From Cyanidioschyzon merolae (lineage: Eukaryota): DNA of 64,000 nt. Both the position numbers and the translations under genes were made by a program. The stretch is from NCBI GenBank assembly GCA_000091205.1, contig AP006495.2. One strand, 5' to 3'. Under the pieces are notes generated by a model. The model was not told the DNA's origin. It saw only the letters and a program-made list of their open reading frames with translations, and made no database searches. Positions 1-61,860 of this stretch are shown here, in pieces. Position 1 is the stretch's first letter. Each line of letters opens with the position of its first letter.

Positions 1-532
1 AATGGCCGTGCACGAGCTAGGATTCTATCTTGCGACTTTATCCCAGCGATTTCAGGATCTCACGAACAAGCTGTTGAGAAATCGAGACGCCCGTGGCGGC
101 TTCAGTCGCCACCACTGCCTCCTGTAAGATGATAAACGTGTTGTTTTCTTCCATTGACAGCAAGCACGCTTTGAAAATACCGGTTTTTGACGCGGAGCGC
201 ATCTACTTTCTTTCAGAGTTCTCTAGCCATCTGAGTACTGTGGTATGACCGACCTGAAGGAGGAATGCCGTCCTTCTTGCACTGTACAGTAAAGATATAT
301 ACCCTAGAGACAATTTTCTACGGTCTATACGGTACATTGTATCATGATTTCGATCTCCTGCTGTACACCGCAGCGAGGATGGAACAAAACTGAGCTGGAA
401 GACTGAAATTGGCTGTCTGACCTGGTTTGCACTGCATGACGCGGGTCGCGGGATACATTTTTCCTGTGCAACGTTCAGTCAAAACTACTTGAAAATCCAG
501 CCGAGTTAGCTTGGCTTTGCGGACTGCAGGAG

Positions 533-6759: not shown

Positions 6760-8083
6760 CTTCGGGTGGACTTTCGCTCTCGAGAAGCGTCATCTTCAGC
6801 GCGACATGTACCGCACTCCGGATACATCGTCAATGAAACAAAACATGTCCCACGCTCGTCTAGGGCAAATGAATATCCACTCGCAGACGCCTGCCAGTCT
6901 TTTTTGGTAGGCCTACTGCTATCGACTTCAGCTTCTAGTTGAATACTTCGAGCATGAGAGGCTGCCCGACAAATTTGGATCGCGTCAGCTCCTTGGTCTC
7001 GTATTCAGTAACCCATCTTTTGGTAGTGATGGCCGCGTTGAAGTCCCAGCGCACGTATTCCATGTATTAATTGCCTCTGGTTGACCTCAGTAGTGCAAGG
7101 ATTCCGAAAACTCGCGCCCCACTGTACCACTACAGACTCGTGGCCGTTGCGTCCAAGAGATACCTTTTCTGGTCTATGTCCTCGCTTGTTCGTCACTCAC
7201 TCTTCTCCGCTCGATTGTCAGCGAGAAGAGGGCTTTTGCAATTATTTGTCGAAGTCGGCAATGACAATACTCCTGGATCCTCGACTTCCATGTCCATACC
7301 TACCCAATGGATTTTCTATTTCTCCATATGAACGCACATCGAAAGCATCTACTGAGATCCGGGATAAATCAATCAATTATGCGTACGTGGGTGCAGAACA
7401 CAATGAAAGGTGAAAGCAGGAATGATGGAGAGTTAATGGCGAACGCATTGTTTGACTACGGGGTACGCAGGGCCAGCAGGATCACCGATACGTTCGCGTC
7501 CGCTGAAGCAGAAGCAGCAGGGTTCGAGCGCGCTGCAAACTACGGGGTGTTCCTGCTGGCCTCTGATCCGACGCGTAAGCGTTTCTCGACCGTATGATGC
7601 CTACAAGAAACTGTTCTTTACATGGATGCTATCTGCCGATAGATGCTGATTTGTATAGATCCACATCACCAACTTGGGCGCTCATTCTATGCAACTCGCT
7701 TCTTTCTTGCGTCCTGTACGCGTTCTGAGGCGATAGATTGCCAATCGCCACCGTTCCGTGCCCAGCGACAAGCGAGTCGAATGATGCCTACAAGCACCAT
7801 AGCACATTCGATATACGACGTCGAAACTGGATGCTTCGCGTGCCCGCGTTCGACACGTATATAGTACAGAGGCTGGCGCGTGCCTCGTGCACGATACCCT
7901 CAACATTACAGGTGCTGAATGTAGTTCGAGCGCATGCTTACGCAGCCTGAAGTGATGCACAAGAACACGCTGTCTCCAGTCGATGCTATCGCAGACTCGA
8001 CACTTGCTTCGGCTGCAGTGCAGGTTCTGCTTGTGCGTCTGTGTGCATGTCCGGTGAGATCTTCTTTGCCGCCTTCTTAGGTT

Positions 8084-9283
8084 TCATTCCAACTTGAACA
8101 GAATCTTTCCCTTTCGATTCGGGGCAAACTGTGCCCGAAAAGCATCCTCATACTGTTCGAGTGTATATTCTTGCTCAACTTGCGGTCGCATATCACCTTT
8201 GCGAATCATTTCAAACGTTTCCTCGAAAATCGTCGGCTTCTGGTTCTTCAACCAAGTTGTAAGCGAGAAACCGCGGACAACGATGCCCTTAAAGATCAGA
8301 TCACTGTTCATGACACACGTCGGTTTGCCGCTCTGCAGCCCGTATGCCATGAAAAGGCCGCCCGGGGAGAGCGCTGCCAGCGCAGCCGAGCCCATCTCGC
8401 CGCCAACAGCGTCAACGACGGCAGCGAGCCCGCGTCCATTCGTTATCGCGTTGAGACGCTCGGCGAGGTTCGGCTCCTCGCCAAAAACGATCACCTCGTC
8501 TGCCCCGAGCTGTTTCAGTTCCGCAACAGATGCTTTCGATCGCACAAAGTTCACCGTGCACAAGCCCCGCTTTTTCGCCAGCTGGATGAACATACGACCG
8601 AGAGTCGAGTTCGCCGCTGTCTGTCCGATCCACGGGTTGCCGTGAACCGGCGCCTCCGCTTCGATCTGCTCCAACATGCCGACCACGGTCAGCGGATTCA
8701 CTATCAATTGAGCGGCCTCTTTATCACCGATATCCTGTGGTACTTTGATACAGAGGTTTTCGTCCACCACGAGGTACTGTTGCCAGCAGCCCGAGCGATC
8801 CGCAAGTGTTGGAATCACACGCGTCCCGACAGGAAGCGAGGTCGCTGGACCTTGCGCCACAACTTCTCCGACACCCTCGAGGCCGCCAACAAACCCAGGA
8901 CGACGTTCGCGCACTGCGGCTACCCCAGGGTACACGCCTTGGACGACAAACACGTCGGCAGGATGGAGGCATGCATACCGCATCTTCACGAGCACCTGAC
9001 CCGGACCAGGCTTCGGGACAGAAGCAGTGGTGTTCAACCTAAGTGCTCCCTTCAGCGGATCGCCAAAACTTACAATTTCCAGAGCTTTCTGCGTTGACGG
9101 TATATGTGTTGCCATAGAGTCTGCAAATCGGTTGCGTCTTCCAGCAACGACACCGCCAGGCCTGTGTCTGGAATCAATTTTGGGGCAGGGAGTGCGCACA
9201 TCAGGCTGGCCGCGTCCACCCGCCACACCTGGACCCGTGCCGCGGTATGCGAATGAATCTGGACTGTGGGAGGCAGCGTGCAT
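8084..9283 (-). CDS. Medium-chain dehydrogenase/reductase resembling mitochondrial trans-2-enoyl-CoA reductase (MECR/ETR1). The likely true start is the internal Met at 9115 (MATHIPSTQKALEI...).
   Basis: MDR-fold collinearity: an N-terminal GroES-like region, then a Rossmann region (AAVVDAVGGEMGSA). The 5' 170 nt of the ORF overlap family I element copy A, which argues for the downstream start. Confidence 0.7.
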   Translation of the reverse strand: MHAASHSPDSFAYRGTGPGVAGGRGQPDVRTPCPKIDSRHRPGGVVAGRRNRFADSMATHIPSTQKALEIVSFGDPLKGALRLNTTASVPKPGPGQVLVKMRYACLHPADVFVVQGVYPGVAAVRERRPGFVGGLEGVGEVVAQGPATSLPVGTRVIPTLADRSGCWQQYLVVDENLCIKVPQDIGDKEAAQLIVNPLTVVGMLEQIEAEAPVHGNPWIGQTAANSTLGRMFIQLAKKRGLCTVNFVRSKASVAELKQLGADEVIVFGEEPNLAERLNAITNGRGLAAVVDAVGGEMGSAALAALSPGGLFMAYGLQSGKPTCVMNSDLIFKGIVVRGFSLTTWLKNQKPTIFEETFEMIRKGDMRPQVEQEYTLEQYEDAFRAQFAPNRKGKILFKLE

Positions 9284-9950
9284 TCGTCAACTTTTTCAAT
9301 CAGTTGAGCGCCTTGAAGGAGGATCAAAGTCAGAGGCTCGTAGTAGCGTACGGAGCAGGGCGCTGGAAGACCCAAAAAGGGACGAGGCCAGCTCCAACGA
9401 CAAGAATGTATGAGGCGTGCACACGGCGTTTCGTTACGATACCGATAGATGAGTTCCGAATATCCTATACACACCATGAACTGGGATGCACACTTCAGAG
9501 GGTCGAGATGGAAACGTGCCAACGGAGCCCTGAGGATATAAAAAAGCACGGACCGCTGACGGAAGAGCAAATGGAAAGGAGGGCGAAAGTTCGTGCATTG
9601 CTTGCACTAGTGAGTACAACCAATGATAGTAAGAAACGTATGGAGTTCGTGAATCGTGACTTTAATCCTGCTATCAATATAAGGAAATGTGTGGTGCTGG
9701 AGACGAGACCTCCAGAGTAGACAAGAGAGAATTTTACTGGACAACCTCTCAAGGTTGAATCATATGAGAAAAAGCTGGAAGCAGTAGTGGGTGACCCGTC
9801 GAACAAGGCCGCGAGGCGTCTGCACATCAGTTGGTGACTTCTTGTCTAGGGCGCGGTTTCTCGCCACTACTGCACACCGCCGGCGACGTCGTTCGACTGC
9901 GAGAGGCGTTCGGCGGTGTACGAGGGGTGTGTGCTTTAAACGCCAAGCTT
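9170..9950 (+). mobile_element. Family I Fanzor/TnpB-like element, copy A. A 5'-truncated 3' fragment running from the RuvC-II region through the zinc finger and RuvC-III into the 3' non-coding tail. Boundaries are approximate.
   Basis: ORF 9247..9720 translates ...RLVVAYGAGRW...TTRMYEACTRRFVTIPIDEFRISYTHHELGC...KKRMEFVNRDFNPAINIRKC. The RuvC-III-like motif NRDFNPAINI sits at 9652..9681. The nucleotide sequence is collinear with copy B, 20386..21200 on the minus strand, including about 230 nt beyond the stop codon. Confidence 0.6.
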
Positions 9951-14698: not shown

Positions 14699-14819
14699 GG
14701 GTTACAAGAAGGCTGCGTTTGGAAGGGCGCAGCTAGCTTGTGCGCGTTTCGAAATCGGCAAACGTCGAGGGGAAATCGAATGCGTGTCGCTAGGCCGCGC
14801 GCGTCCGTGCACTGCGGAA

Positions 14820-15045
14820 TAGTACATAACTGGATAAGATGGACAGGAGCGCCTGGCAAGCGTCGCCGATCATGCCGCATGGCTCTGCACTGCACGGCTC
14901 TTCGGGGTGCATTCAGTGGCGTCTACAGAGAAACTGTACATAACTCATTCAAATGGACAGGACTGCCTAACCAGCGTCGCCGATCATGCCGCAGGGCGCT
15001 CTGCACTGCACGGCTCCTTGAGGCATCTGCAGTGGCGTCCGCATG
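14820..15045. repeat. Tandem direct duplication, unit about 115 bp, 2 copies, immediately upstream of the MPP-beta start codon.
   Basis: TACATAACTGGATAAGATGGACAGGAGCGCCTGGCAAGCGTCGCCGATCATGCCGCATGGCTCTGCACTGCACGGCTCTTCGGGG... is repeated as TACATAACTCATTCAAATGGACAGGACTGCCTAACCAGCGTCGCCGATCATGCCGCAGGGCGCTCTGCACTGCACGGCTCCTTGAGG... Confidence 0.65.
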
Positions 15046-16733: not shown

Positions 16734-17867
16734 TTTGATTCTTGTGAAAGATGTTGTTACCGTGCGCATACACTGTAAAACAGGTCGCCCGTATTCGTTC
16801 CGCGCTTTTCGTAAAGACTCTGGACACACAACCGTAGCACACGTTCTGCACCGGTCTGTTGGGACGTCGTCACCAGGCGGGGGCCTTGTTTGCGTACGCA
16901 AGGCTTAACTTTAGCAATGGCAATGCATTTCGACGCCCAGGTTGCAGCAGCAGATACGAATGGCGCCCTCGGTAGGTGCCCCGCTTGCGTCACGAGATAA
17001 ACAGAAGCGGTATGCATCATCCGATGCGGGGCCTATGTACCGGTCTCAGGGTCTGTATCGAGGACGATACCTTGAACCACGGAGCGCTTCGTGTTACCAG
17101 CACGCCGTCACGTCTCCAGCGAGCAGTTTGTCGGCTGTGGTGCGGATAGGGGGCGCCTTCGCACCGCTCGGCCCTGGCCTCGTGACGCAAAGCCAGTTCA
17201 GAGCGCTGCTGCACCGATTGCAGTCGATGGTGTGCATGGTAAAAAACAGCCGTTATTGGGCAATCGCCAACAAATATCGCACGTTTTCACAGCACAATTG
17301 TGAAGCTTCCCAATACGCAAGCCGTATACGCCGTCACCGTTACCGCCACGAACAGCTACTCCAGACCGAGCAGCGGGGAAATTGCGGTACGCGAGCACCG
17401 ACGCTACCTGCATGTCGTATTGAAACGCAACAGTGGACTGTATGATTTTGTTTCCGAGCTCTGATCTTTTTCCGAGCCATTCTTAGATGTAAAGCGTCGA
17501 CATTCGAAGCGCAGCGAGATGGCTTACGGGCGCATTCGTAGCTTTCGGGTTCTAGATTGTCTTTTTCGAGTGGCTCTCGGTACGCTTTGGTGCTCGAATT
17601 CGTTGCGGCACCGGAATCTAGATGACTCACGACGCCCCCGAACACGGGTTCTCAAACTAACCGGTATCATTATCAGGTTCCTACGTACCAGCATGCACTC
17701 GTCTCCTTTCCGTGCAGGTCGCATGCTCATATGCCACCTGCTGAATGTTTTCGATCTTTCTGATTTATGGTGTAACTCGTGGGCGCAGCCATTCGCGCCG
17801 TTGGATTGACGACGAAATAAATCTTGGACGTCATCGCTTGGCGAGCTGTTCACGAGCGCATGCCGAA

Positions 17868-18576
17868 AGCTCCCTGAGCTCGGCACTTCAAATAATGGAT
17901 TTCGTTCGAAAGACCAATCTCCCGATCTTTGCGGTCATCCACGAAACGGCGTTCGACGGCAGTATGCTACATCTCATTGGATTTTCTCCGAAACGCTCGT
18001 GTATATTCTGTTTGCTTGAACGTGGGTTTTGGACTTGAGTCACCGCTGCGACCGCTTCCGGTGGAGCCTGCGTTATGGATAAGCACGGACGGAGCGTAGA
18101 CGGACCAGAATATCTAGAGCGCTTCTTCAACCTGAATTTTCCTTGCGGTGGTTTTCTTTTATCATGGAAATCATCGCGTTTCACAAATCATTCATGGAAT
18201 AGAGCAGCGTGCACTCGCGCGTGCAGCGGAGAGCGTATTCACCAAAGCTGACTTTCCAGAACATAACTGTTCTCGTCCGGTACTGTATTGGACCTGGAAA
18301 CGGAGAAGGACATGTCCCGAGCGAAAAAGCTCGCTTTCACGCGCCTCAGAGCGGCACTCGGAGAGGGAATTGCGATGCATGTATGTGAAGACCTGATCAC
18401 GACCGAATGGAACCGCTACGAGAGACGCTCCGAAGCAGTGTGCAAAAAAATGAAAATGGGAAGCGACGCATCGTTCGCAACTTCAGCTTCTGCAAGACAT
18501 GCGAAAACGGAAGCTGTAATCCGCAAAATCGGGACTTGAACGCTGCCATCGACATCGTTCGTTTGCCGGCAACGGG
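17868..18576 (+). mobile_element. Family II TnpB/Fanzor-like relic, copy G. A shared 5' module is followed by a degenerate C-terminal zinc finger and RuvC-III. It is frameshifted at an A7 run.
   Basis: The 5' module 17868..18060 is homologous at nucleotide level to 33200.., 37497.., 57460.. and 61085... Translation gives ...EDLITTEWNRYERR..., then after a frameshift ...RNFSFCKTCENGSCNPQNRDLNAAIDIVRL* (motif 18517..18546, stop 18574). Confidence 0.5.
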
Positions 18577-20405: not shown

Positions 20406-22703
20406 TCAGCTCGATGATGGGGCAAACTTCGCACGAACCAGCAAGAAACGCCGTTCTAAAGTAGAACGTCGTCGGCGGTGTACAGTAGTAGCGACCGGTG
20501 CGCCTTGGACACCAAGTCGCCTACTGACGTGCAGACGCTTCCTAGGCTTTTTCGACCGGCCGCCTACTACTGCTTCCAATTGTGTCTCATATAGTAAAAC
20601 CTTAAGAGGTTGTCCAACAAAATTCTCGCGTGTCATCTCTGGAGGTCTCGTCTCCAACACCGCACATCTCCTTATATTGATGGCGGTAATAAAATCTCGG
20701 TTCACAAAATCCATCCGTTTCGTGCCGTTGGGAGTTGTACTTACTAATGCAAGCAGTCCACGAACTTTCGCTCTCCTTTCCATTTGCTCTTCCGTCAGCT
20801 GTCTATACTTTGCTATATCCTCAGGGCTCCTCTGGCACTTTTCCATCTCGACTCTCTGAAGTGTTAACCCCTGTTCATGGTGTGTGTGCTATGTTCGAAA
20901 CTCAACTACAGGTATCGTAACGAAACGCCTTGCACACTCCTTGTACATTCTTGTCGTTGGAGCTGGTGTAGTGCCTTTCTTGGGCACCCATCGTCCTGCT
21001 CCGTACGCTACGACGAGCCTCTGACTTTCCTCCTCCTTCAGGGCGCTCAACTCATTCAAAAAATTCGCGAACGCCCGCTGCCTCCCACCGTATAGATTCA
21101 TTCGCAAACGAGCCCACGGGGGTTGGTATACTCCTCCCATAGCGCATCCCGGTGCGCCATATGCGAACTTCCATGAATTTCCGGACAGCTCCAAAGTCCG
21201 CTCCTCGGCTCGTCACCTTACTCAAAGCTTCCGGGCGATCCTTCATTCCTGCATTCCGTTTCTCGATTTTCTTCCTCGCATTCATGATTCCCGATTCTCG
21301 ATAGTATCTCGCTCTCGAGATCCTCAAAAAAGACGCATGTCTTTCTGACGCAAGTTACCATCAGCACCATCTTCCGTACGCTTCGGTGCTACGATGGTTA
21401 TGATATTCGTATTCCCAGGGTCCGCGCCAACGACAAGGTCGTTATCCTGCACTTTCTGCGCGGCAGGATCCTCCTCCTTCTCATCTTTATGCATCGCCGC
21501 GCCAACGACAAAGTCGTTAGCTTGCACCTCCTGCGTCGCAGCATCCTCCTCTTTGTTTTCTTCATGCTTCGCCGCGCCAACGACAAGGTCGTTATCCTGC
21601 GCTTTCTGTGTCGCGGGACCCGCCTCTTTGTTTTCTTCATGCTTCGTGACGGGCGCAGCCGATGGAGGGACTGGACGATCTTTCTTCAACCTCCGATAGT
21701 GCACACACATGGCTACTCCATCGGGTTCGATCAACCCAGTGAATACCTTTTGTTTGCTCACTTTCAGACGTTTGAAATCGAAGATGCTCATCCAGTACGT
21801 CTCCCGGTTTCCGCCGGTGAAGTCCTCCCTGCTAACATCGAACTCCGGACAGATATCCCTCGTGATGCCGTAAAGGATTCTGGAGTTGATAGTCACAAAA
21901 TGTGACTTGATCTTGCACATTGGAACCACGTTGAAGTGCTTCCCCATTAGGACAGCCTTCCGTCTCTCCCACTCTTCCTTTGACTCTTCACTCAGCTTCA
22001 TCTCCGCTTTGCGTTCGAGCTCTCGGTCCAGAAACACAAAATAGCGCAGAACGAGGCGATCGTATCTTTCCCTATCTTTTTTCAACGCTGATATCTTGTC
22101 TGTTGGATTCGCCAGCCCCAGTACCGTACGATGCTCTTCGATAACCGCACGGATGACGGAATTCTCATTCGTGCTCTGGTTTGACTCCTTGTTGTCAACG
22201 AATTCGACCTCATTTCCATAGTTTCGATCGTTCGTGATGCCATTGATAATCGCCCATATTCCTTTGCGAGACAGGCCCCGGTAGAGTGCAAACACGGCGC
22301 GTATCATGAAACGTTCGAGGTTCATTCTGAAATGGTTCTTCAGATTCGTCAGGTACTTCATCGCCCCATATGTGTAGATATCCGCGTCACCCCTGTATTG
22401 GGTACCCTCGAAGAGGAATTCCGCGAAGTTTTCGTGGAGGACTTTCACCCGCTCATTTTCCCTCCGCGCTTCCTCTGTACCAAGCATCAGCTGACGAATA
22501 AAGGTCTTATCGAAAAACTCGTCCGGAATCTCGACCGTTTCCATGTTCGTCACGTAGAGGTACATCTCCTTCACCAAATGCATCAGTCCTGAAGATGCCT
22601 TTATCCTACTCATGGGGTACAACTCGAGAAGGTTTTTGATGGCCTCTCGCAACTTTTCCTTGTACGGATCCTTGATATATTTAAGAACACAGACTTTCAC
22701 CAC
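20406..22703 (-). pseudogene. Family I Fanzor/TnpB-like nuclease gene, copy B. It is near full length, about 640 aa in total, but is split into three reading frames by at least two frameshifts.
   Basis: Frame 1, 22703..21324, is 459 aa with an N-terminal helical region and ends in ...[19 protein letters not shown] (RuvC-I-like GxDPG, with the Asp near 21420). Frame 3, 21194..20889, reads RQRAFANFLNELSALKEEESQRLVVAYGAGRW...YKECARRFVTIPVVEFRT. Frame 4, 20846..20406, reads MEKCQRSPED...KRMDFVNRDFITAINIRRC (RuvC-III-like, 20673..20702). Compared with intact copy A, 14 codons (SYTHHELGCTLQRV) are lost at the 20846/20889 junction. Confidence 0.7.
21420..21644 (-). repeat. 75-nt (25-aa) tandem triplication inside the Fanzor-like ORF, immediately N-terminal to the RuvC-I aspartate.
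   Basis: Protein repeats [50 protein letters not shown] and [25 protein letters not shown]. Only the third unit keeps the Asp of GADPG. Confidence 0.6.
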
Positions 22704-23199
22704 TATCTCGTTGTACAGTTGTCTTTCTTGCCGCCTTCGACGTAGAACCTCCCCCTTTTTGAATCTTCATCACTTCCTGTTCCTCTTTGCTCCGCCTTGT
22801 TTATCTTTTTTTCCGGCAGCGGGTGATATCGGCCCTCCGGGATCCTCCACTTCCATTTCCATGACTTTCCTTTTAATTTTTTGAAAACGAACGCTCTTTG
22901 AACGCTTCTGTTATATACTTCGAAAAAACACTTGAATATACTCAATTGAGGGTCGGAATAGGATGGAACAGAAAACCTATACTTTGCTACGACCTCAACG
23001 CGAATACAACTTTTACAGTAGAATAGCACGCCAATGATCAGGATCACTGTTCCCCTCAAGAGCGACCAGAGCGTCGTGTCTCGTGCCCGCCGGATCTGCC
23101 AGGTGCGCGTGCACGCGCAGCGGCTGACCTGCGCCCCGCCGCCGATCAGGAGATTGCTTCTGGATATGTCTATCTCAAAGCGTGATAACCTGTTGCTGA

Positions 23200-25569: not shown

Positions 25570-27000
25570 GTAGAGGCGCTTCTGTTGATAGTCTTTCAAC
25601 TCAATTTTGTTTCATCGCGGCTACGGTATATAGGAGGAGGACGAAATCACTAGGTAATGTTCTGTATAGATTGTCGACGAATTGCATACGGCATATGTAT
25701 TCTTCACTGAACAATGCAATGATGATTGCATTGCTCCTCGATGTCAACCATACTGCTATACTCAGATGCTTGACGAGCACTGAAAGAAACAAGTATATGC
25801 GCTCCGGGCCGAAACCTGATATTCTCAAAGCCTGCTTGCAATCAGTGATAGAAAACGACCAGTTGATCAATTTAAGGGAAGCAAATGCGTCCATAGTAGC
25901 CACCACGGGCGTCTCTGTTTCTCAACAGCTTATTCGCGTGATCCTGAAAACACCGGGATCCAATCGCAATAAAGTGCTAGTTCATTCACGGCCAGCTTCC
26001 ACCGAAATCGCAGGCACGGTGTTCCTGGAACGTCGCGATCGGTATGAAGCACAGGAACATCAGTTTGTTTTCTCACTCGATGAGACTTGCTTCAAACGAG
26101 ACAATCGCAGTGCAGATGAATACTTGCTGAGCGGGAGCCCGTTGCACGTACGCTCGAAATCGTAGAGAACGTCGACATCATCATCTGTTCTAGCTGCGGT
26201 GGATTCATTTGGCTGCCTCAGTTCCGCTGAAGAGAACACTCATGCAGCAGCGCCCTCTTTTTGTCGAGTCATCGAAGACTTGTCCCAAACGTCTGGTGAA
26301 GTCCTTCTATTGGACATAGTGGTATTTAGCCATTCTGCTTCAGTTCGAGCATTTGCCAATTCTATCGACGGGTAGAGCTGGTTTCATTCCTTCTTCTCAC
26401 CTGTGTTTCATTCCCATAGAAGGAGAGTTTTGCGTCCTGAATCGTCACGACCGCTCCACCGGGCGAATAGATGAAGCGTTCAGCACATGGTGACCAACCG
26501 GGGCACATTTGGTCTTTATTCCGCATGTGCTGCTCGATGCGGGAAGGTCGTCATCTCAGGCTATAAACAAGTGCGTTCATTTTCGAAAAATCTAAGGGAC
26601 GAGCTGGAATATACACCCTAGGATGTTGAGTTGGAGCGAGGCCAGCGGAGCGTTTCGTCGACGGATCAGCACGAAGAGCTGACAGAGCACCCAATGGCAC
26701 AGCGTGCACGAGTTCGTGGTCTCCTATCATTGGTGAGATCAACCAGCGGCAACAAACGCATGGAGTCCATGAACCGAGACCTCAACGCTGGTATCAATAT
26801 CAGGAGATGCTTGTGCTGAATGCGAGGCACGCAGCGCTGCGGCAAGCTAACTTTGTTGGGCAGCCTCACAGCGTCGGAGTGTATATGGAGAAACTGAAAC
26901 CGATACCAGAACCCTGTAAGAAAAGGCTGAGAGACGTCTGCGGGTGGATATTCATTTACACGATATTGTGGCGAAACGGGTTTGCTGCACTGACGTAACG
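25570..27000 (+). mobile_element. Family I composite element, copy C. An IS630/Tc1/mariner-like transposase N-terminal fragment is fused to an internally deleted Fanzor 3' module.
   Basis: ORF 25671..26165 reads ...GPKPDILKACLQSVIENDQLINLREANASIVATTGVSVSQQLIRVILKTPG...RRDRYEAQEHQFVFSLDETCF, an HTH followed by the first DDE-type Asp context. ORF 26631..26819 reads ...KRMESMNRDLNAGINIRRC (26772..26801). The 3' conserved block 26938..26995 ends ...TTGCTGCACTGAC and is truncated. The whole copy is collinear with copy F at nucleotide level. Confidence 0.6.
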
Positions 27001-32645: not shown

Positions 32646-33189
32646 ACCCTAGGCGTGACAACTCGAGTGCTTCGAGGCGCTCACTGGTCGCCTCGAGGTC
32701 AGCAGGCAGCAGACAAGCTGAGCTAGCGTTCGTCGAAGAGCGGCATACGCTTCATACGTATCCGAGTGAAGTGCACCACGGGATGCTGTGCTTTGTTCCT
32801 ACATCTCGGAGTATTTTCCGAACGAAAGTTTAGATGTGCAAAGTCGGCTTTCGACGTGCAAAAAGTAAGAGCTTACGGACGCATACAAGTAGCCTCAGGA
32901 TTCATGTCACGCTGTTCGACGTGGCTCTTTCGACGCTTTGCCGCTGGAATTCGGTACGTGGCCGGAATGAGGACGTTTCACGCCTCCTTCGAACTAGTTT
33001 TCGTGAAGCAAAGGATATCAATCGTCAGTCCATATGGATAAGCCTCCGGTCTTCTCCGTTCCTTATGTGCAGGATGTTCAAATCGCGCGTGCTTCAATTT
33101 TATGGATCTCTCGCTAAGGAACGTTATAGGCGATGTGGGATTGAAGGGGAATCCAAAAGCGGGGCGTCATTCCAGGATGCGTTCTTCGC

Positions 33190-33960
33190 CAGCTCAAGCC
33201 GAAAAGTCCCTGAGTTTCTCACCCAAATATTCGATTGCGTTCGAAAGACAAACCCTCCTGTGGCTGTGACCAGTGACACAACTGCATTCGACAGCACCGG
33301 CATGCTGCATTTCGGGTGACACGCTCCCAAACGCTTCCGTATCTTCTGTTTGCATCGAAAAGGCTCTTGTCTTCGGAATTGAGTCATCGCATCCACTGGG
33401 TCCAGCGGAGAGCGTCTTCATCGCTTTGCACAATGGGAACGGTGACGGGCAGACACTTGTGCTTATGATCTCCAGCCTGGATTTTGTTTTTGGTATTCGA
33501 TTTATGATGGAATTCATCACGTTCCATAAATCCTCGGTCAGCGGGAATAGCCTGCAACCGCCCGTGCACCAGACAGAATACTCCCGGAGGACATCACTCA
33601 GAAGAAGCCCCAGATCGTTGGATGCAGCACTGAGCGTTGAAAACGAGAACAGTATCCAATGGAGCCTTCTGGATCCGAAGGGGTATGAACAGAGCGACGC
33701 AGCGAGCCTGGACGCGCGACACAGCAGCGCTCGGAGCACGGGCAGGTCTGACACATGCATTCGGGAGGGCCTGACCACAACCAAGTGCCACAGCTAGAGA
33801 GTTTGCACAGAAGTTGTATACCAAGAGGCTCGAAATGGCAAGCGAACCGTAGATTGCATCTCCCGTCCGTGAACGCAATGCGTCGCAAACAACCAGAAGC
33901 GTCCGAATCGGGATGCTGACGCTACCGCCACCGTGCTTTCACTGCTGACATCGGAGCCGC
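33190..33960 (+). mobile_element. Family II TnpB/Fanzor-like relic, copy J.
   Basis: 5' module homologous to copies G, K, I and H. A possible RuvC-I-like WSLLDPKGYEQSDAASL. A Cys pair TCIREGLTTTKCH, then ...NGKRTVDCISRP..., then the RuvC-III relic NRDADATATVL (33906..33941), collinear with copy H. Confidence 0.5.
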
Positions 33961-37496: not shown

Positions 37497-38245
37497 AAGT
37501 TTACTGAAATTGTCACGTTATGTAAGCGATCTCGCTCGAGCGGCAAAAGAATCCTCCTCTGTCTGTGGCCCTCGACAAAACGGCATTCGACACCAGCAGC
37601 ATGATACCTCGAACGAGATATGCTCCACGAGGCGCCCGTATCCTCTGTTTGCATGAACAAGGATCACGGGCTCGTACTAGAGTCATCGCAACGATCGCTT
37701 CCAGCAGAGATCCTCTTAGCGCTCTGCACGTAAGGGCGCAAAGTTTGAAATTTCACGACTTGTTTTCCTTCCGGCACTCGTTTCCTCGTGGACAACGACG
37801 CTTTCCAAAAATGTTCTACCGAGTCCAACAGGATGCGCTTGCACTCGCAGCGAACAGAATACTCGCCTAGCGGATCGCCCAGAACAAGCCCGCTTTCGCA
37901 GGAGCGGCACTAAGCGCGGCAGCGGAGGATCGGAACTAGGCGCGCTTCCTGTACCCGTTATGGGTTTGCATTGAGCGATAGAGCAAACGTTGATGCAACA
38001 CAGGGCTGCCCCCGGAGAGCGCTTTGGTGTCCATACGGGAGCACCCGCCAATTATCAAAAGTAATCGCTGCGACCAGTGCTCCATGACTGTTTACAAAAG
38101 ACGATGAAGGTTGCTGGCGATGCGTAGAGATTACAACTGCCGTCTGTGTATAAAGTTCGTCGAGAGATCAGCGTGAAGCGGCAAAATCGCGGCGTTAACG
38201 CTGTGATAACCATCTCTCAACTGCTGACCACGGAGCTGGCGAGAC
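37497..38245 (+). mobile_element. Family II TnpB/Fanzor-like relic, copy K. Highly degenerate.
   Basis: 5' module 37497..37740 homologous to the other family II copies. Downstream are YNCRLCIKFVERS and, after a frameshift, KRQNRGVNAVITISQL (38185..38223). Confidence 0.4.
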
Positions 38246-44887: not shown

Positions 44888-45229
44888 GGTTTTTTATCCG
44901 CTGCATATTCGTGCTGCTAGCTTTGAAGCGAAATGAGGTCTAAATAGGCGGCTTTCGAAGAGAAAACAGCGACGACTACACGAATGCGGATACAGATACC
45001 CACTTGTACTAATTGTACCAATATTAAGGTCTATTAGATCCCATTTGTAGAGGATGTGATGGGTGCCGCACCCCGCACAGGTCCAGCGGCCGCGTTTTCG
45101 TTGGATACGCTCGCGTGCGCTCGGCCACCGGGGAAGCAACGAAAGCGCGCTCTATGTTCCTTCATGTCAATGGTACTCCATATCCTGGTGCGTCTCATCA
45201 TATGCTTTTTTGCGGTTTATAGAAGATTT

Positions 45230-45761
45230 GTTCGAAATGCATTCATTTGAAGAAACAGAGAGAATCCAAGGAAAATTATAGACTGAAATTCGGGGATCCA
45301 GAAGGGCCCTCATCACCGCGTTATACCAGCGAACGAAAAATCCCCTAGTCGCCGACCATCGAGCGAAGAGGAACAAGTGACGAAGAAGCGGAAGCAAAAG
45401 GGAGATAGTCGCCAAAACGGTGATCTCTCGACCGGACGATGACCAGACTCTAGAGGCACATAGGGAACGAGAACCAGGAATCCATGCAAAGGTGACTTCA
45501 ACAGGAGCGAAGAAACGCAAAGAGTTCGTGAGCCGCGACGGAAACGCTGCTATCAATAGCAGACGATTTGCGGCGCTGAACGCGAGAGCCGACGAGCTGA
45601 TGCGATCCAAAATTGCGAGGCAGCGTCTCAGGATCCATGTGTGCCTGGATAACACTGACCCCGATACCAGGATGCGGGTGGAAACACACTGGGAGGCGTC
45701 TGCGCGCGGGTACTCATTTTGCCTCCATTGTCATAGAACGTTTATCGTTTTCCTGACCATA
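45230..45761 (+). mobile_element. Family I element, copy D. A 3' fragment followed by TA.
   Basis: ...KKRKEFVSRDGNAAINSRRF (45531..45560). Terminal block GTCTGCGCGCGGGTACTCATTTTGCCTCCATTGTCATAGAACGTTTATCGTTTTCCTGACCATA, then TA at 45762..45763. Confidence 0.55.
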
Positions 45762-47916
45762 TATGGGCAATCACGAATGGGCAAACCGCTGTTCTCGAAG
45801 AAGCGACAGGTGAGCAAGACCGCTGCATTAGCCAGTACGGCTATTTGCACGGGTGATCGCCTACAAATCGCCAAACATACCGGAGCGCTTCGCATCGCAG
45901 GCAACGTAAAAGCAATGTGTGGCTTCTGTTTGCGACATTCTTCTATTCTGCTCTATGACGACGTCGATTTCCATCACGAATGAGCTGTCAAGGAGTACGT
46001 GACAAAAACTGCTCTCGAGCTGCTCCTGGTGAGACCCTTTTTTTCCGATTCAAGCCAGTCGAAGGCGACATCTCTGTTGCCAAACACCGTTTTTGAAGCT
46101 CACGGATCCATCGACGAGTCGTCCGCATCCATGACACTGTCATCCGACGAATTGCTCTTCGGAAAGTCATTCTCTTCCTGAACCATTCCTGAGCTGGTGT
46201 CTCTCAGCTATGCTTGTTTGCGGGAGGGAGCGAAAATGCGCGCCTCGGTCCGTGAACATCGCCCTTGGGAGCCGCTAAAGAGATTGATGCTCAGGAATCG
46301 TGGAGATATATGTAGGAGAAACAGAGTTCTGGAACAAGTTCCACTCAGTGCGTCGAAGGAGATGCTTTAAACGCTCCAGACAGCACATGAGACTCTGTTC
46401 GATTCGCTTGCAGTTTCGGTTGTATGGAGGCAAGAGTCAGGCATTCGCCAACTTGTGCGATAACTTGCAAAAAAGCAAATGGTCGATATCTCGAGTTGTC
46501 ATGCTGTAGTCAATGGCACTGGACGTGCAGTAACGCGCGAGCGCTGCACTCCGATTCCTTTGACGACAGCGTACATGGAGTGCAGGAATCGGCGCTTTCA
46601 GATTTCCTTCCATGAGTTCAGGACGACACCATTGCATCACGGGCGCGGGTGCATGTTGAATCAGGTACAGATGGAGAGCGTGAAACGGATCCGAATGCAC
46701 GAGATGGTGCTCACTAAGCTGAGCGGACGCCAGCTGACGGGGCGATCCCAGGTCCAAGGCTTGCTGTGAGGTGACGCTACCAGCAAACCTGCACACAAGC
46801 ACGTTCTACACCGAGACCCAAAACGCCTCGACCATCATCCGGGGATATCTTTTGCGTCCGAAGCATCCAGCGGCCATATGTCGAGCAAGCCTTCGAGGGT
46901 ATCGTTTGGTGATCAGTGTGGGCATTTTGCTGAAACGCGGAAGGCATGCGATGAAGAAAATCAGTAACCAGGAGAGAGGGGAATGGATTCTTTCGGGAGC
47001 GAGGCACTGGTATTGGACGGTCAGCGATCGAGCACGATTGATCACTATATACATCCGCAACGATTTTCCTTGGCAACTAGTGAACATTAGCAATGTTCAA
47101 TTACTCGATATCACCGTGCATATGCTCGACGCGAACGGCCGTACGATCGCCCCAGACTGCACTGTTACCGTACGACGTTCGTGGTAGCGTCTCCCGCGCT
47201 TTCGCAAGCGATCAGATTTCGCGAGACACCTACCGGGAAGCCTGATCCAGCCTCTACATCATGCCTGGATTCTGGACTGGGGATGGAGGAACGAGGACGC
47301 ATCACCATGTGCGGGGCGCTCCATACTCAACAAACTGGAAGCTTTTGCGCATCCGTCGGAATCTGGTCCGATGCACTGATCCAGTACACACTAAAATAAA
47401 GCAGTGACGATGGAGGGCGGTGCCTTTGACACCGTAAAGCTCGCTTGACAGCGACCGCATGGACAAGAGGGTGAAGTGCGCGGTTCCGCGGCGCGCTCGC
47501 CACGGGAAATGGCGCCCCAAGTGAAAAAGCGGTCAGAACACGTGCTCATACAAGGTCGAATGCGTTGGTTGCTCCCTCGGTTACCGACCAAAACCGCTTA
47601 CCACGATGGCACTTTGCATATCGATGATGTTTATCCAACGTTAGTGACAATGACGCAGTGCAGCGAATCATCTAGAGAATATATCTCTGGTTCCAGTGCA
47701 GACACGCCATCATGAATGCATTCAGTGATGCCCGTCACAATGCGCTTCGCTGGGAACACGCTATCCCCATTCGATGAAGCGCGGTACGGCAGGCCACGTA
47801 GACCTTGAAAACCCTTGCATTTGCTTGGCGCTGCAACACGAATCCGTTCAGGCATCGGAAAAGTGAACCGCTGCAATTCGGCATAGCATGCAGACCTTGA
47901 ACGCTGTCACGAGACG

Positions 47917-49044: not shown

Positions 49045-49419
49045 CTAGGCAAAGAAGCGCTTTTTCTTGTCCCCAGCGCCACCTGCTCTGCGCTCGGGAG
49101 CTTCTGGAGACTATGAATGAAAAGCACGCACAGCACGCTCCTCGGCTCGCAGCGGTTTACCTGAATATTTGGCGTAGCTGTAGTGTGAGCACGTTTTACA
49201 CGCAAAAAAACCTCAGGAAAAGCGAACGTGATAAGTTGTCACGTTACATGGAAATCCGTGTTTCCGTTGATAGACTGCTTTGGGTAGCTTTATGTCATGG
49301 GGATCTGTTTGTGATGCGGCGACGACGACGACGACGACGCGCGCGGCATCTCGTACGGATACACGCTTGCAGTATTTCATCTCAATTGGGTTCCATCATC
49401 ACGCACGTGTCGTCAAATG

Positions 49420-49979
49420 CTATTTCGCGGTTTATTGCAGAGACATTCAAAGCGCGTTCCGTGGAAGGAATAAAACATCCCAGGGGAATGCACGGACCAA
49501 GTCGGGGACCCCGAAGGATCGTCCTCGCCAGGTGCCAGAAAAAACGAAAAATATCCTCTTGTCATCGAGTTTAGAGCGAAGAAGAGCAAGTGACAAAGAA
49601 GAAAAAGATGATGATTCGTGTTGGTAGGCGATTCAACGTGTACGCACGACGGAACGATGACGAGACTATGGTGGCACAGAGGGAACGAGTGCTAGGAATC
49701 CTTACAAGGATGACTTCAAGCATCCTCAATGCACGCAGTGAGCTCGTGAACCGCGACTTGAACACTGCTATCAATACCAGACGATTTTCGGTGCTGAACA
49801 CGAAACCCCAAGAGCTGACGCGAGCCAACTTCGTGGAGCAGCCTCTGATACTCAAAATGTGTAAGGAGAAGCTGGAGCCGATAGCAGGCGGCCGGTCAAA
49901 AAATGGTTGGGTGACGTCTGCGGGTGGGTATTCATATACCCTACATGATCGTGCGAAAACTTTTGTTTCAGTGACCACA
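49420..49979 (+). mobile_element. Family I element, copy E. A 3' fragment followed by TA. Its right end lies 50 bp upstream of the next gene's ATG.
   Basis: ...SELVNRDLNTAINTRRF (49749..49778). Conserved terminal block GTCTGCGGGTGGGTATTCATATACCCTACATGATCGTGCGAAAACTTTTGTTTCAGTGACCACA, then TA at 49980..49981. Confidence 0.6.
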
Positions 49980-50028
49980 TAGTGCATGTGAATAAATCTG
50001 TTCTGATGTATAGCTCTTCGGGATCCGC

Positions 50029-55929: not shown

Positions 55930-57389
55930 CATTGTTCAAATGTTCGATCTTTATTTTTCAACTCAACTCGATCCTATCCACACTGACTGCAGTCGCATGC
56001 TTTCTCGCACTGTATAGCAGCAGATCAAGATCAAGATGCCATGTACCATACAGACGGTAGAAGAATTGCCTATAGGATCCATTCTTTACTGGACAGTGCA
56101 AGGGGATTGCATTTCTATCTCAGGTCAGTCATGTAACAGTACTCAAATTGTTGAAAGACTCGGCAAGAAAGAATAAGATGCGGTCAACGCCAAAACCGAT
56201 ACGCTTACGGACCGCTCGCGGTCCATGGTAGGAAAACGACCCGTTGATTACCTTACGGAAAGCAAAAATCAACGATAGTGTACACCACCACTGGCGTCTC
56301 TGCTTCCCAATAGCTTGTTCGTGTGGTCCTGAGAACACCTGGAAACACTTGTAAAACAGTCCCAGGTCATGCACGGCCATTCGCCACAGAATTCGCAACT
56401 GCAGAAGAGTTCCCGGAGCTTTGCGATCGGTATGAAGCAAATGGACAACGCTTTATTCTTTCAGTCGGTTCGATCTGCTTCGGACGAACCAGTCGGAGCT
56501 TGTATGGGTATTCGCATCGAGGCAGATCGTTGTATGTACGATCGAACTGGAAGCGAACGATGGCGCCATCTGTTCTAGTTTTAATGGGTTCATTGAGCGA
56601 CCTCTGTCTTGCTCGTGGAGCAGAAACATCCAACAGCACCAACCGCCTTGTCGAATAATAGAAGACTCTTCGCTGACGTACGGCGACTTTATTGGTCAAC
56701 GTGGCATTTGACAATCCGCCTTGCGTTCGAGCTTTTGGGAATTCTATCGGAATAGAGCTGATTTTCATTCCTCCGTACGCTCTTTAATTCAACCGCAACG
56801 AAAGAGTGCTTTCTACTGTGAAACGTAATCATCGGTCCACCGGGCGAGTCGCCGAAGCATCCAGCACACTGTGACACACCCGGGCACATTTCGTGGTCCT
56901 TCCGCAGGTCCTTCACCTTTGGGGAAGGTCCTCACCTAAACGCATAAAATAGTGCATTCATTTTCAGGAAATAAAAAATCGATGGTATGAGTTTGGATGC
57001 ACACTTCAGAACAAAGAGATGGAGAAGAGCCAGCGGAGCGCTTCGGTGATAGAAAAGCACCGAGAGCTGACACAGAACCAAATGACACAGAGTGAACGAG
57101 TTCTAGGAATCCTTGCATTGGTGGGTTCACGCAGCGACGATAAACGCATGGAGTTCGTGATACGAGACCTCAACGCTGCCATCAATATCCGACGATATGC
57201 AGAGCTGAAGACGAAACCCGCAGAGCTGTAACGATCCAACTTTATGAGGCGACCTATTAGGATCGAAGTTTGCAACGAGAAACTGAAACCGACAACAAGC
57301 AGCTGATCGAAAACGACTGGGTGGCGTCTGCACGTGGATACGCATCTACCCTACATAATCGTGCGACAATTTTTGTTCCACTGACCACA
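55930..57389 (+). mobile_element. Family I composite element, copy F: a Tc1/mariner-like N-terminal fragment plus an internally deleted Fanzor 3' module. Followed by TA.
   Basis: Nucleotide sequence collinear with copy C. ORF 56323..56658 reads ...LRTPGNTCKTVPGHARPFATEFATAEEFPELCDRYEANGQRF... ORF 57019..57231 reads MEKSQRSASV...KRMEFVIRDLNAAINIRRY (57160..57189). Terminal block GTCTGCACGTGGATACGCATCTACCCTACATAATCGTGCGACAATTTTTGTTCCACTGACCACA, then TA at 57390..57391. Confidence 0.6.
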
Positions 57390-57459
57390 TACCATGTCTG
57401 AATAACTTTTTGGCGTCCTCCTGTGACGACTCGTCGGCAAGCTCACGCAGAAATTTCAC

Positions 57460-58300
57460 TGAACTTGTCAAGTCAAATACTCGATTCCATTTGAAAGACA
57501 ATGCCTTCTCACTTGGTTGCTATCGATGGAACCACGGTCGACTTCAGTTCGACAAATCCCGGGAGATACGCACGCAGTGGCTGTCTTCTCTTGTATTTGC
57601 GTGGAAAAGGTCTGGGGCGCGGACTCTAGTCACAGCGGTGATCTCTTCGGGTGCAGCGTGCGTCACGACTTCGCATGGGCGGAGCGTAGACGAATCGAAT
57701 TTTCTCGACTTGATCTCCAGCATGGATTACCATACCGGCGCTCGTTTCATCATGGACAAGCTTGCGTTCCACAAATCCTCTTTCGAATGGGACAGCGTGT
57801 GCTTGGTCGTCCTACGGATATTGAGTTCGCCACGGGCATCGCCCTAAACAAGTCCATGATCGTTGGGTCCGGCAACTGGCTGGCGCGGAAACCTTCCAGG
57901 ACGTCGCGGGGAGCCTTCTGGATCCGTCACGGGCCTGTGCCGGGCGATGCAGCGAGCGGTCACGCACCGCAGGGCGCCAATCTGAGGACGACAAATGGAG
58001 AATACACTCGAATGCCTGACTACCGACGAGTGGCACTGCTACGAAAGGCGCATCCGGGCTCTATACAAACAAGCGAAAAACGGCTGGCGAGGCGTCGATC
58101 GCAGCATTCGCCTGTGCATGGAAAACATGAAAAACATTCGAAAACAGCGTGATCAGGAGTTTAGCGCTGCCACGAACATCTTGCGACTGCTGAAAAAAGA
58201 GCTGGAAGCACAGGAGAGACTGGGGCATTTAAAACCTGAAAAAAGATACCCTCAAAGGGAACAGTTGGAAAAAGTCTGCAAAGGCTGGCATTGATAAAAC
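57460..58300 (+). mobile_element. Family II TnpB/Fanzor-like relic, copy I, about 70 bp downstream of family I copy F.
   Basis: 5' module homologous to copies J, K, G and H. ORF 57995..58294 reads ...LTTDEWHCYERRIRALYKQAKNGWRGVDRSIRLCMENMKNIRKQRDQEFSAATNILRLL (RuvC-III relic about 58145..58192), collinear with copy H. Confidence 0.5.
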
Positions 58301-60329: not shown

Positions 60330-61084
60330 GGCAATGTGAAACAGGGAATAGTCTCTGAAAATGAACGTGATTGCTCTTGAGCTTGATCTCGGCACTGGCC
60401 GATGCGGCCGCGATGCAGCAGGTGCTTGCATTTGCTCGGTTTTCGAGAACTTCGGGTCTCGCCAGCTGCATTGATCAAGAACAGCGACACCAAAGCATGG
60501 CAAGCCAGGTACATATGCTGACCACGAAAGCGTTCGGACAGCCGGCAGCGAGGATCCCGAGTTCAAGAATTGTCGCTCTGGACCAAGGCGCTTGAGAGAG
60601 GTCCGCGCCTCGAGGCTGAACGTGTGCTGGACCTGCGTTGCGTCAAAATGGAACACTAAAATGCTCGCTCTCTTCCTGTCTTTCGAGTTTTCCCAAAATT
60701 TCTCACGTATTCTGCATCGATATTCGGAATGGAGCAACTGCGGCTCATGGAATCAAATAAAGCATTAGGATTCTCGGTAGTGGGTTCAGGATGGATTCTT
60801 CGACTTTTTGCCGCTTGAGTTCGTGATGTCATCGGGATCGAGATACTTCGCGAAGCGAACGAACGTGGTGTCGTAAAATAATCGATATCGTCATCCGATT
60901 CAGGAGTATACGTCTACGCACGTGTCCGCTCCGTACGAGTTGCGTACCCGAATCAAACAGTCTTGAAGTTTTCGCTTTTCTAGATGCAAAGCGAGTCGTG
61001 TGCACAGCGATTCGCGTCGCTGGATTGACGAGGAGGAAAGATGAGCGTCGTCCCCTGATGACTTGTTAACAAGAACATGTCGAA

Positions 61085-61860
61085 AGTTCGCAGAACTCGT
61101 CACGTCAAATAATTGATTCCAGTCGGAAGGCAAAGCTTCTTCACTCTGTGCGGTAATCGACGGAACGGCACGCTACAGCAGCGCGACACGTCTCCGGGGA
61201 TAAGCTCCCAGACGCTCTCATCAGCTCTGTTTGCATGGGATAGGTCTAGGACGCTGACTTGAGTCATAGAAGCAATCGCTTCTTTCGAAGTGTTCGTCAA
61301 CGCTTTGCACGAAGGAAGCCTTGACGAAATGATACTTCTCGAGTACAGCGCCAACATGGATAATCCGTTCAGTCGGTTAGCTCGTCATGAATAACATCGC
61401 GTTCGACAAATTCTCTATTGACTGGAACAGTGCGCCTGCAGCCGACGTAGTACTCGCCGAGGGAAACGCTCAGACAAAGTCCGTGATCGTCGGCTGCGGC
61501 ACCGGATGCGGAATGCGAAAAGGACATCGCAGGGAGACTTGCATATCCACCAGGGGTAAGTATGGAGCGATGAAGGAAGCGGTGACGCGCCATCAGGCGG
61601 CATTCGGAGAATGAGGTGTGATGCACATATGAGAATCCACGACCAAAGCCAAGTGCCATCGTTGCGAGAAGCGAACCAGGGAAATATACAAAGAAGATGA
61701 AAATGGCAAGCGAAGCGGAAATCGCAACCGTGGGCTTTACATGTCACGCGTTGACAATAGCAGGAATCAGCGTAATCGGGAGTTTAAAGCCGCCATCAAC
61801 ATCCTTCGATAACTGTCAACGGATTCAGAGGCACAGGAGGGACGGATCCAGTGAACTCGA
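61085..61860 (+). mobile_element. Family II TnpB/Fanzor-like relic, copy H.
   Basis: 5' module 61085..61330 homologous to the other family II copies. Downstream translation gives KCHRCEKRTREIYKEDENGKRSGNRNRGLYMSRVDNSRNQRNREFKAAINILR* (motif 61774..61809, stop 61810). Confidence 0.45.

Follow-up and report, generated by a model that had tools for sequence, protein, structure and literature searches.

Decayed Fanzor1 elements of Cyanidioschyzon merolae share a terminal block that is probably the coding tail and right end of an extinct CMe-1 subfamily

Genes and Fanzor-related repeats of the locus

The window analysed here, a stretch of 64,000 nucleotides (nt) of the red alga Cyanidioschyzon merolae (contig AP006495.2, assembly GCA_000091205.1), contains several decayed copies of a Fanzor-type nuclease element that end in a common block of ~60 nt, and this block is the subject of the present work. 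Seven of the eight long ATG-started open reading frames (ORFs) that were looked up in the window are exact annotated proteins of C. merolae 10D (BAM80971 to BAM80987, chromosome 13, CMM genes). Analysed with Pfam, the gene set is compact, intron-poor and eukaryotic, and includes eRF1, AsnRS, a P-type ATPase, an M16 peptidase and GDH. The repeats under study occupy the short intergenic gaps.

An original prediction, made from the letters of the window, had taken these repeats for remnants of Fanzor/TnpB-type nucleases, and this identification is supported by ...NRDLNAAINI... just upstream of the block. The RuvC-III motif of TnpB/Fanzor proteins (RDxNAAxNI) is found directly upstream of the block as NRDLNTAIN in copy E, as RDLNAAINI in copy F and as NRDFNAAINI in the consensus, and tblastn with copy B, P0001 and P0035 as queries matched all copies. 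In the protein search, relatives appeared only in hot-spring-type metagenomes of the Joint Genome Institute (JGI). A Fanzor1 family of C. merolae, CMe-1A, has already been described (Bao & Jurka 2013, Mob DNA 4:12; PMC3627910), with ~150 copies that are ~80% identical to their consensus, a length of ~3 kb, no terminal inverted repeats (TIRs) and a target-site duplication (TSD) given as undetermined (PMC3627910). Its 3169-base pair (bp) consensus, to which all consensus positions below refer, was taken from Additional file 2 of the same paper. The related elements and fragments of the window are the following:

Copy E, 49371..49979, plus strand: whole mini element of ~600 nt, in which the 5' untranslated region (5'UTR) and ~45 N-terminal codons of a CMe-1-like ORF are joined to the C-terminal ~115 codons
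Copy D, 45175..45761, plus strand: mini element
Copy G, 6825..7400, minus strand: mini element
Copy F, 55955..57389, plus strand: long element with an IS630/Tc1-like transposase pseudogene nested in the 5'UTR, followed by a Fanzor C-terminal remnant
Copy C, 25592..26994, plus strand: long element with a nested IS630/Tc1-like transposase pseudogene
Copy Z, 1..404, minus strand: left part of another long element (5'UTR and start of the nested transposase), cut by the window edge
Copy B, 20449..23110, minus strand: near full-length Fanzor1 pseudogene of CMe-1A type with another tail, 85% identical to consensus 658-3169
Copy A, 9245..9893, plus strand: 5'-truncated element of CMe-1A type with the other tail, 88% identical to consensus 2506-3153
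Fragment H, 46405..46817, plus strand: internal Fanzor piece from the RuvC-II region, between D and E, with no recognisable right end

Copies E, D and G are internal-deletion derivatives of ~600 nt, and C, F and Z additionally hold a gene inserted in the 5'UTR. In all block-bearing copies the left boundary falls at one point of the CMe-1A 5'UTR (consensus 779-796). A complete nuclease with RuvC-I, -II and -III was not found among the block members: copies C to G of the window keep only the C-terminal ~115 codons, and the best block member from metagenomes, P4, extends back only to RuvC-II. Copy B has the motifs GADPGNTN and DEFRT. Its Fanzor ORF also contains three tandem 75-nt units (21422-21646, minus strand) just before the RuvC-I motif, which encode repeats of 25 amino acids (aa); the number of such units varies, being four in P0001 and one in the published consensus.

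The terminal block and its copies

The block was searched for with a degenerate 23-nt pattern, GRCGTCTGCNNGYGGRTAYNCAT, built on its 5' part. Exactly five places of the window match it (49913, 57323, 45695 and 26933 on the plus strand; 6891..6869 on the minus strand), where 0.01 would be expected in shuffled sequence. This count bears out the claim that E, F, D and C have a block in common. That list of copies was right as far as it went, but it had overlooked the fifth copy, G, on the minus strand, and the block starts given with it were off by 1 to 10 nt. Here, the start was counted in every copy from the invariant CGTCTGC; the GTCTGC of copy E begins at 49916. On this basis, the terminal blocks are:

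Copy E, 49915..49979, plus strand: 19 codons RLRVGIHIPYMIVRKLLFQ, stop TGA at 49972-49974, then the 5 nt CCACA; TA at 49980-49981
Copy F, 57325..57389, plus strand: RLHVDTHLPYIIVRQFLFH and stop, TGA at 57382-57384; TA at 57390-57391
Copy D, 45697..45761, plus strand: RLRAGTHFASIVIERLSFS and stop; TA at 45762-45763
Copy C, 26935..26994, plus strand: frame broken by a 1-nt deletion, final bases diverged
Copy G, 6825..6889, minus strand: RLRVDIHLP, a stop and further residues, TGA at the ancestral position; TA at 6824-6823

The right tip of the block reads ...CACTGACCA in this subfamily. In the alignment of the five copies the mean pairwise identity is 0.686 within the block and 0.37 just beyond it, and a drop from ~0.69 to ~0.37 indicates a genuine repeat boundary. 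The block is therefore the right end of a repeat, as had been proposed, since the similarity between copies collapses beyond it. The TA immediately after the block in E, F and D was seen as described, and so was the perfect GGGTAT-tcat-ATACCC hairpin of E, which within the window is perfect in that copy only. Copies E and F have ~16 further nt in common past the TA (CATGTnTGAATAA; 49982-49995 and 57392-57405) that are not found in the other copies. This extra stretch could mean that E and F are sisters, or that their element extends beyond the point where the others end. Because the downstream flanks looked alike, a longer duplicated unit and a common promoter were also considered; both were rejected, since the genes that follow bear no relation to one another and the flanks, these 16 nt aside, are no more identical than background (0.37).

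A scan of metagenome contigs with the block pattern yielded 47 loci. Some are orthologues of C, D, E, F and G at strain level, with 97-99.5% identity to the window; others are new paralogs, designated P1 to P6. A second protein search with contig look-ups added paralogs P7 to P10. Mini elements of ~600 nt were also found in P2, P3 and P6. The same scan of viral contigs gave 0 matches.

The block in the ancestral reading frame

The block had been described as non-coding and downstream of the nuclease stop codon. It lies instead in the ancestral frame, as 19 codons and a stop, and in E and D the present-day ORFs (49590..49982 and 45420..45983) read through it. Both traverse the block in a frame shifted by +1, because a 1-nt insertion lies upstream in each; that of copy E, near 49903, puts its extant ORF out of the ancestral frame. 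The stops seen before the block in the original prediction are out-of-frame triplets or secondary nonsense mutations.

Several lines of evidence point to this frame. In the published CMe-1 ORF (734 aa) the codons CGT CTG CAC are read R-L-H, with the stop 7 codons on, and many independently called metagenome ORFs end in ...RRLHVSWRxx followed by a stop. The 5- and 9-copy consensuses of the block subfamily show one uninterrupted frame from the RuvC-III motif region through the block to a TGA, and in the 13-copy consensus, which starts only ~38 nt upstream of CGTCTGC, the frame is open through the block to the TGA. The consensus ORF ends in ...GGRSKKAGRRLRVGIHLPYMVVRHFLFH or ...RRLRVGIHLPYMVVRHFLFH, each followed by a stop, with the TGA ~6 nt before homology ends. 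The ancestral C-terminus reads ...GGRSKKxGRRLRVGIHLPYMVVRHFLFH, of which the block makes up the last 19 residues before the stop.

Individual copies agree with this consensus. The first stop stands at one common codon in E, F, D and P7 (TGA) and in P6 (TAA); copy G retains the TGA at that codon, but an earlier TAG precedes it. Paralog P2 reaches the ancestral TGA through a net +3 indel, and its 184-aa ORF is intact up to that stop; P4 has a 257-aa ORF that runs from the RuvC-II region straight into ...RRLRVDIHLPLMIV, and P5 has RLRAGMH and the stop after it in common with the block. Database protein P0141 ends in ...RRLRAGINLPSMLVGHFLFH, and P0138 and P0154 read through variants of that end. 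Pfam returned nothing for either the tail consensus or the P2 mini-ORF, and a codon-position test was uninformative about the coding status of the block, as the clearly coding upstream part is itself without bias.

Relation to CMe-1A and modular tails

Copies A and B align with the CMe-1A consensus over their whole length, including the tail, at 85-88% identity, so that their assignment to a separate subfamily with a different 3' tail holds, and this subfamily corresponds to the published CMe-1A type. Copies C to G match CMe-1A in two segments, ~789-933 (5'UTR and first codons) and ~2737-3088 (C-terminal codons), at 67-78%. Their homology to CMe-1A ends at the invariant CGTCTGC (consensus 3084-3088), and the block beyond it has no match in the consensus, whose own right end reads ...GAAAGGCG. 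The block is thus an alternative 3' module of ~60 nt of the CMe-1 family.

The tails are modular in other members too. Paralog P5 (loci L023, L044 and L048) has the first 7 block codons with their stop, followed by a CMe-1A-like non-coding tail, and P4 (L019, L020, L051 and others) tracks the block for 13 codons and then diverges. At the other end, CMe-1 subfamilies with 3' parts in common have discrete, different 5' starts, at consensus 1, ~658 and ~787; the left end of copy B is at window position 23110. The first 635 bp of the published CMe-1A consensus are an element of their own, TE-N2_CMe, of which the window has no copy.

Conservation and decay of the copies

Among paralogs, the mean pairwise identity is 0.686 in the block versus 0.667 in the 270 nt upstream of it. 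The block is thus no better conserved than the surrounding pseudogene, an outcome that the original prediction had itself named as evidence against its proposal. Mismatches in the upstream part are distributed evenly over the codon positions (0.334/0.338/0.332), which implies that all divergence is neutral decay after insertion. When strain orthologues were compared, 4 of 317 sites were variable in the block, 91 of 4276 elsewhere in the element (Fisher p = 0.41) and 46 of 10758 in host genes, the strain-level variation of the block being ~3 times that of host genes.

Persistence of the block through frameshifts had been attributed to selection on RNA or DNA. Under neutral decay such persistence says nothing on selection, and on the present data the attribution fails on both counts, with block identity close to that of the upstream pseudogene and orthologue variation no lower. 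The copies are alike through common ancestry, without present-day preservation, and all copies of the window are dead, neutrally decaying relics. Another case in which shared descent mimics a conserved non-coding region occurs in CMe-1A. In some copies (L002, 12158-12400; L003, 5732-5970) the ORF is shortened by a CAA>TAA change at the Q of ...NFIG-Q, and ~190 nt past that TAA are still well conserved in nucleotide sequence with A, B and L001, the mean column identity being 69% over the whole five-sequence alignment.

These data bear directly on the proposal that the block is a non-coding guide-RNA (omegaRNA) scaffold, located after the stop and kept by selection in the copies of today. Its position at the 3' end of Fanzor remnants, its end at a repeat boundary, the strong predicted structure of its ancestral consensus and the known occurrence of omegaRNAs at this end of such elements all speak for it. 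However, the block is in frame with the ORF, the ancestral stop is ~6 nt from its end, and the ORFs of E and D traverse it; its identity equals that of the upstream pseudogene and its strain variation is not reduced; compensatory changes are absent and single copies have lost the fold; and the block copies of the window have no nuclease core able to use a guide. We regard such a selected scaffold as highly improbable, and a function of the block as a guide scaffold at the present day is largely refuted.

TA dinucleotides, inverted repeats and the nested transposase gene

A TA starts at most 8 nt past the last conserved motif (CACTGA) in 10 of the 13 paralogs, versus ~3 expected, a significant enrichment of a rare dinucleotide; TA constitutes 3.2% of the dinucleotides of the window. 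At the other end, a TA is found at or next to the left boundary in six of nine copies (C, F, D, E, P1 and P2). The CMe-1A consensus carries the same TA at the homologous internal site (GTATAG, ~787), and the TA of the left boundary is for this reason not readable as a duplication. No clean terminus or TSD could be read at the left ends, where the boundary maps inside the CMe-1A 5'UTR at ~787. Inverted repeats were found neither within copies, nor between the consensus ends, nor around the transposase gene, the scores being at the level of shuffles. A direct repeat, TTTTGTTTCA, occurs close to either end in the block subfamily; it is weak, scoring at the ~95th percentile of shuffles.

The nested transposase genes are located at 25800-26500 (C), 56200-56900 (F) and 1-404 (Z, minus strand), and also in paralogs P1, P2 and X. 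A consensus stitched from these six copies matched Pfam DDE_3 with an E-value of 8.7e-18 and 65 bits, against a cut-off of 28.6, and has an N-terminal helix-turn-helix (HTH). Every copy of the transposase is degenerate, in the window as in the metagenome loci, and copies E, D and G lack the gene.

One could take these features to mean that the block once terminated, on the right, a transposon of the Tc1/mariner (IS630) type, which inserted at TA and was mobilised by the DDE transposase of C, F and Z, with the Fanzor as cargo. The enrichment of TA past the right end (10 of 13 paralogs) and its presence at the left boundary of six copies would fit, as would the DDE_3 match with its HTH, and there is a published precedent in Mariner elements that contain Fanzor1 and have TA TSDs, PUl-1 and PUl-4 among them (PMC3627910). 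Nevertheless, TIRs are lacking at the ends and around the transposase, as they are reported to be in CMe-1A, and the CACTG, which sits 6 nt short of the end, has no counterpart at the left. Moreover, the transposase interrupts a 5'UTR that is otherwise colinear with CMe-1A and so looks like a nested insertion, E, D and G have no transposase, and the left TA, being also present in CMe-1A at ~787, need not be a duplication. Of the Tc1/mariner signature originally suggested, the TA enrichment outside the right end stands, and the CACTG-like end is present, but neither terminal nor mirrored. An end of Tc1/mariner type fails its defining test, although a target containing TA may have been used, and we consider this origin of the block distinctly unlikely.

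Predicted structure of the ancestral terminus

The consensus of 13 copies is predicted to fold strongly, with -24.5 kcal/mol over 63 nt (z = -4.5) and -43.0 kcal/mol for the terminal 97 nt (z = -5.15; 0 of 500 shuffles fold as well). For the 9-copy block consensus z was -3.8, whereas 65-nt windows of the upstream coding consensus gave z from -1.2 to +1.6. Single copies, at z from -2.3 to +1.4, do not surpass shuffled sequence. The predicted fold has three parts: a stem GCAGGCG/CGTCTGC around CCGGTC-aaaaaa-GGCTGG; a GGGTA...TACCC hairpin, of which the perfect hairpin of E and that of P8 are remnants; and, reaching to the element tip, an imperfect hairpin of 13 bp, TGGTCGTGGAACA-ttttt-TGTTTCAC-t-GACCA. 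Compensatory changes do not maintain the E hairpin over the 13 copies. The CMe-1A tail is less structured (z = -2.5 to -2.9 over 150 nt); its model contains a long-range stem, CAGTAGTGG/CCACTACTG, in which copy B has one double, compensating change. Searches of Rfam gave no match at the gathering threshold for the whole window and none at E <= 1 for the ends of E and B, and a tRNA search found none.

The hairpins might be incidental and never have been functional, the block being solely a coding tail with a few terminal bases. All the coding evidence is compatible with this, as are the lack of covariation and of an Rfam match and the disagreement of the fold models between subfamilies. It is difficult to reconcile with the z of -5.15 for the terminal 97 nt versus -1.2 to +1.6 in the upstream coding windows, and with the strengthening of z as paralogs were added (-3.8 at 9 and -4.5 at 13, for slightly different spans), which is what a real ancestral structure would give. 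In addition, the distant intact homologues P0035, P0042 and P0043 end ~20-30 residues earlier, from which it follows that the tail is not a conserved part of the protein fold. A purely coding block therefore seems unlikely, though it deserves to be kept in mind.

A terminal palindrome could also be a single-stranded DNA hairpin that marks the right end for HUH/rolling-circle transposition, as in IS200/IS605 elements and Helitrons. The 13-bp imperfect hairpin at the element tip and the absence of TIRs would agree with such a mechanism, and so would the constant 3' end combined with 5' ends that differ between CMe-1 subfamilies (1, ~658 and ~787), the short direct repeat near both ends and the published occurrence of Fanzor1 in Helitron2 elements with end hairpins (PMC3627910). 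On the other side, no HUH, Y1 or RepHel gene was noticed in the scanned ORFs of the window and loci, where no dedicated search for them was made, the direct repeat reaches only the ~95th percentile of shuffles and the end is unlike the CTRR terminus of Helitrons. We give this mechanism very little credence.

Origin and possible former role of the block

The explanation that we find likely is that the block consists of the C-terminal coding tail, the stop and the right tip of a decayed, extinct CMe-1 (Fanzor1) subfamily, that it is shared by descent, and that the terminal ~100 nt probably also acted as nucleic acid in the ancestor. In the ancestral element the block encoded the last 19 residues of the Fanzor-like ORF, with the stop ~6 nt from the right boundary. 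Copies E, D and G derive from such elements by internal deletion, C, F and Z also have a nested transposase gene, and the ~68% mutual similarity of the copies is inherited, the block decaying at the neutral rate of the rest. The terminal ~100 nt of the ancestor were presumably strongly self-complementary, with three hairpins, the last one at the element tip. By analogy with TnpB and Fanzor systems, its most likely role would be that of the 3' part of an omegaRNA scaffold, which would overlap the ORF end and run into flanking DNA as the guide; it may also have served in cis as the right end when the element transposed into a site containing TA. Given the modelled folds and the analogy, a role of the terminal ~100 nt as ancestral guide-RNA scaffold or as DNA hairpin is plausible.

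Several results weigh against this explanation. No covariation was detected over the 13 paralogs, with 70.9% of cells paired versus 70.5% in shuffles, although its lack is expected because the copies are dead and neither supports nor refutes the fold. The fold models lack robustness, as the predicted partner of CGTCTGC lies upstream in the block subfamily and downstream in CMe-1A. In random sequence, 19 codons would be open by chance in ~40% of cases, and the coding argument therefore rests on the combined lines and on no single one of them. The distance from CACTGA to the TA ranges from 1 to 8 nt, and 3 paralogs have no TA, which leaves the exact terminus unfixed. Lastly, no full-length intact Fanzor with a block tail was recovered.

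The mini elements invite a bolder proposal. The whole nuclease core is gone from them, whereas the start codon, ~45 codons at the N-terminus, the final ~115 codons and the structured right end were kept. The ~600-nt minis (E, D, G, P2, P3 and P6) might have been non-autonomous, guide-only hitch-hikers, whose terminal ~100 nt would be an omegaRNA lying almost wholly within coding sequence and used in trans by a CMe-1 Fanzor to home or retain the mini, and the tails (CMe-1A type, block and P5 hybrid) would then be exchangeable guide modules. This is a speculation to which we assign a slim chance.

In practical terms, the block is a right-end marker of a decayed subfamily of an already published family, which is routine repeat annotation. 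What is gained is a second, different right-end module for the CMe-1 family, together with a consensus reconstruction that recovers a strongly structured terminus and points to where a Fanzor guide RNA of C. merolae may be sought. If an ancestral omegaRNA did lie inside the coding 3' end, a red-alga example would be added, with a hint that non-autonomous derivatives keep the guide region.

Other repeats in the window

A second, unrelated family of dispersed repeats with 64-70% identity is present at 17777-18575, 33185-33858, 37550-37891, 57413-58220 and 61045-61843, one member beginning ~20 nt past the right end of copy F. Its ORF at 57463-58149 had no Pfam match, and the family is unlike the CMe-1A and TE-N2_CMe consensuses. 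Two tandem direct repeats of ~115 nt, 77-81% identical, occupy 14806-15039 at the start of the M16 peptidase ORF region.

Comparison with known systems

The long copies resemble the Mariner elements PUl-1, PUl-4 and PGv-1 (Bao & Jurka 2013) in having a DDE (IS630/Tc1-like) transposase gene upstream of Fanzor sequence and TA at the boundaries. In those elements, however, the TIRs measure 24-33 bp and the TA TSDs are clear; here TIRs are lacking and the transposase is apparently nested in the 5'UTR.

The omegaRNAs of TnpB and the fRNAs of Fanzor (Saito et al. 2023; Jiang et al. 2023) offer another parallel. An omegaRNA is transcribed from the end of the transposon and may overlap the gene for Fz or TnpB (PMC10432273; PMC10530073). 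Like them, the block overlaps the nuclease ORF at its 3' end and extends to the right end, and its ancestor is predicted to be strongly structured. Unlike them, it has neither covariation nor an Rfam family, and its copies have no nuclease core. A scaffold at this place would sit almost wholly in coding sequence, whereas the described Fanzor fRNAs reach well downstream of the ORF (PMC10530073).

The nearest relative is CMe-1A. It differs in what follows CGTCTGC, where the block subfamily has 17 more codons and ~6 nt and CMe-1A has 7 codons and a 59-nt non-coding tail, and in the left boundary, at ~787 in the block subfamily compared with consensus position 1 or ~658. Furthermore, all block members of the window are internal-deletion derivatives, some with a nested IS630/Tc1-like transposase gene. 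Both belong, on the other hand, to the same genome, and over the 180-350 nt that precede the block identity to the consensus is 67-73%; the left boundary of the block subfamily uses the same 5'UTR segment; the protein end ...GGRSKKxGRRL(H/R)... is read in the same frame; and both are without TIRs, with old and decayed copies. Judged by comparison with the published CMe-1A consensus, the block-bearing copies appear to form an extinct and seemingly undescribed subfamily of this known Fanzor1 family.

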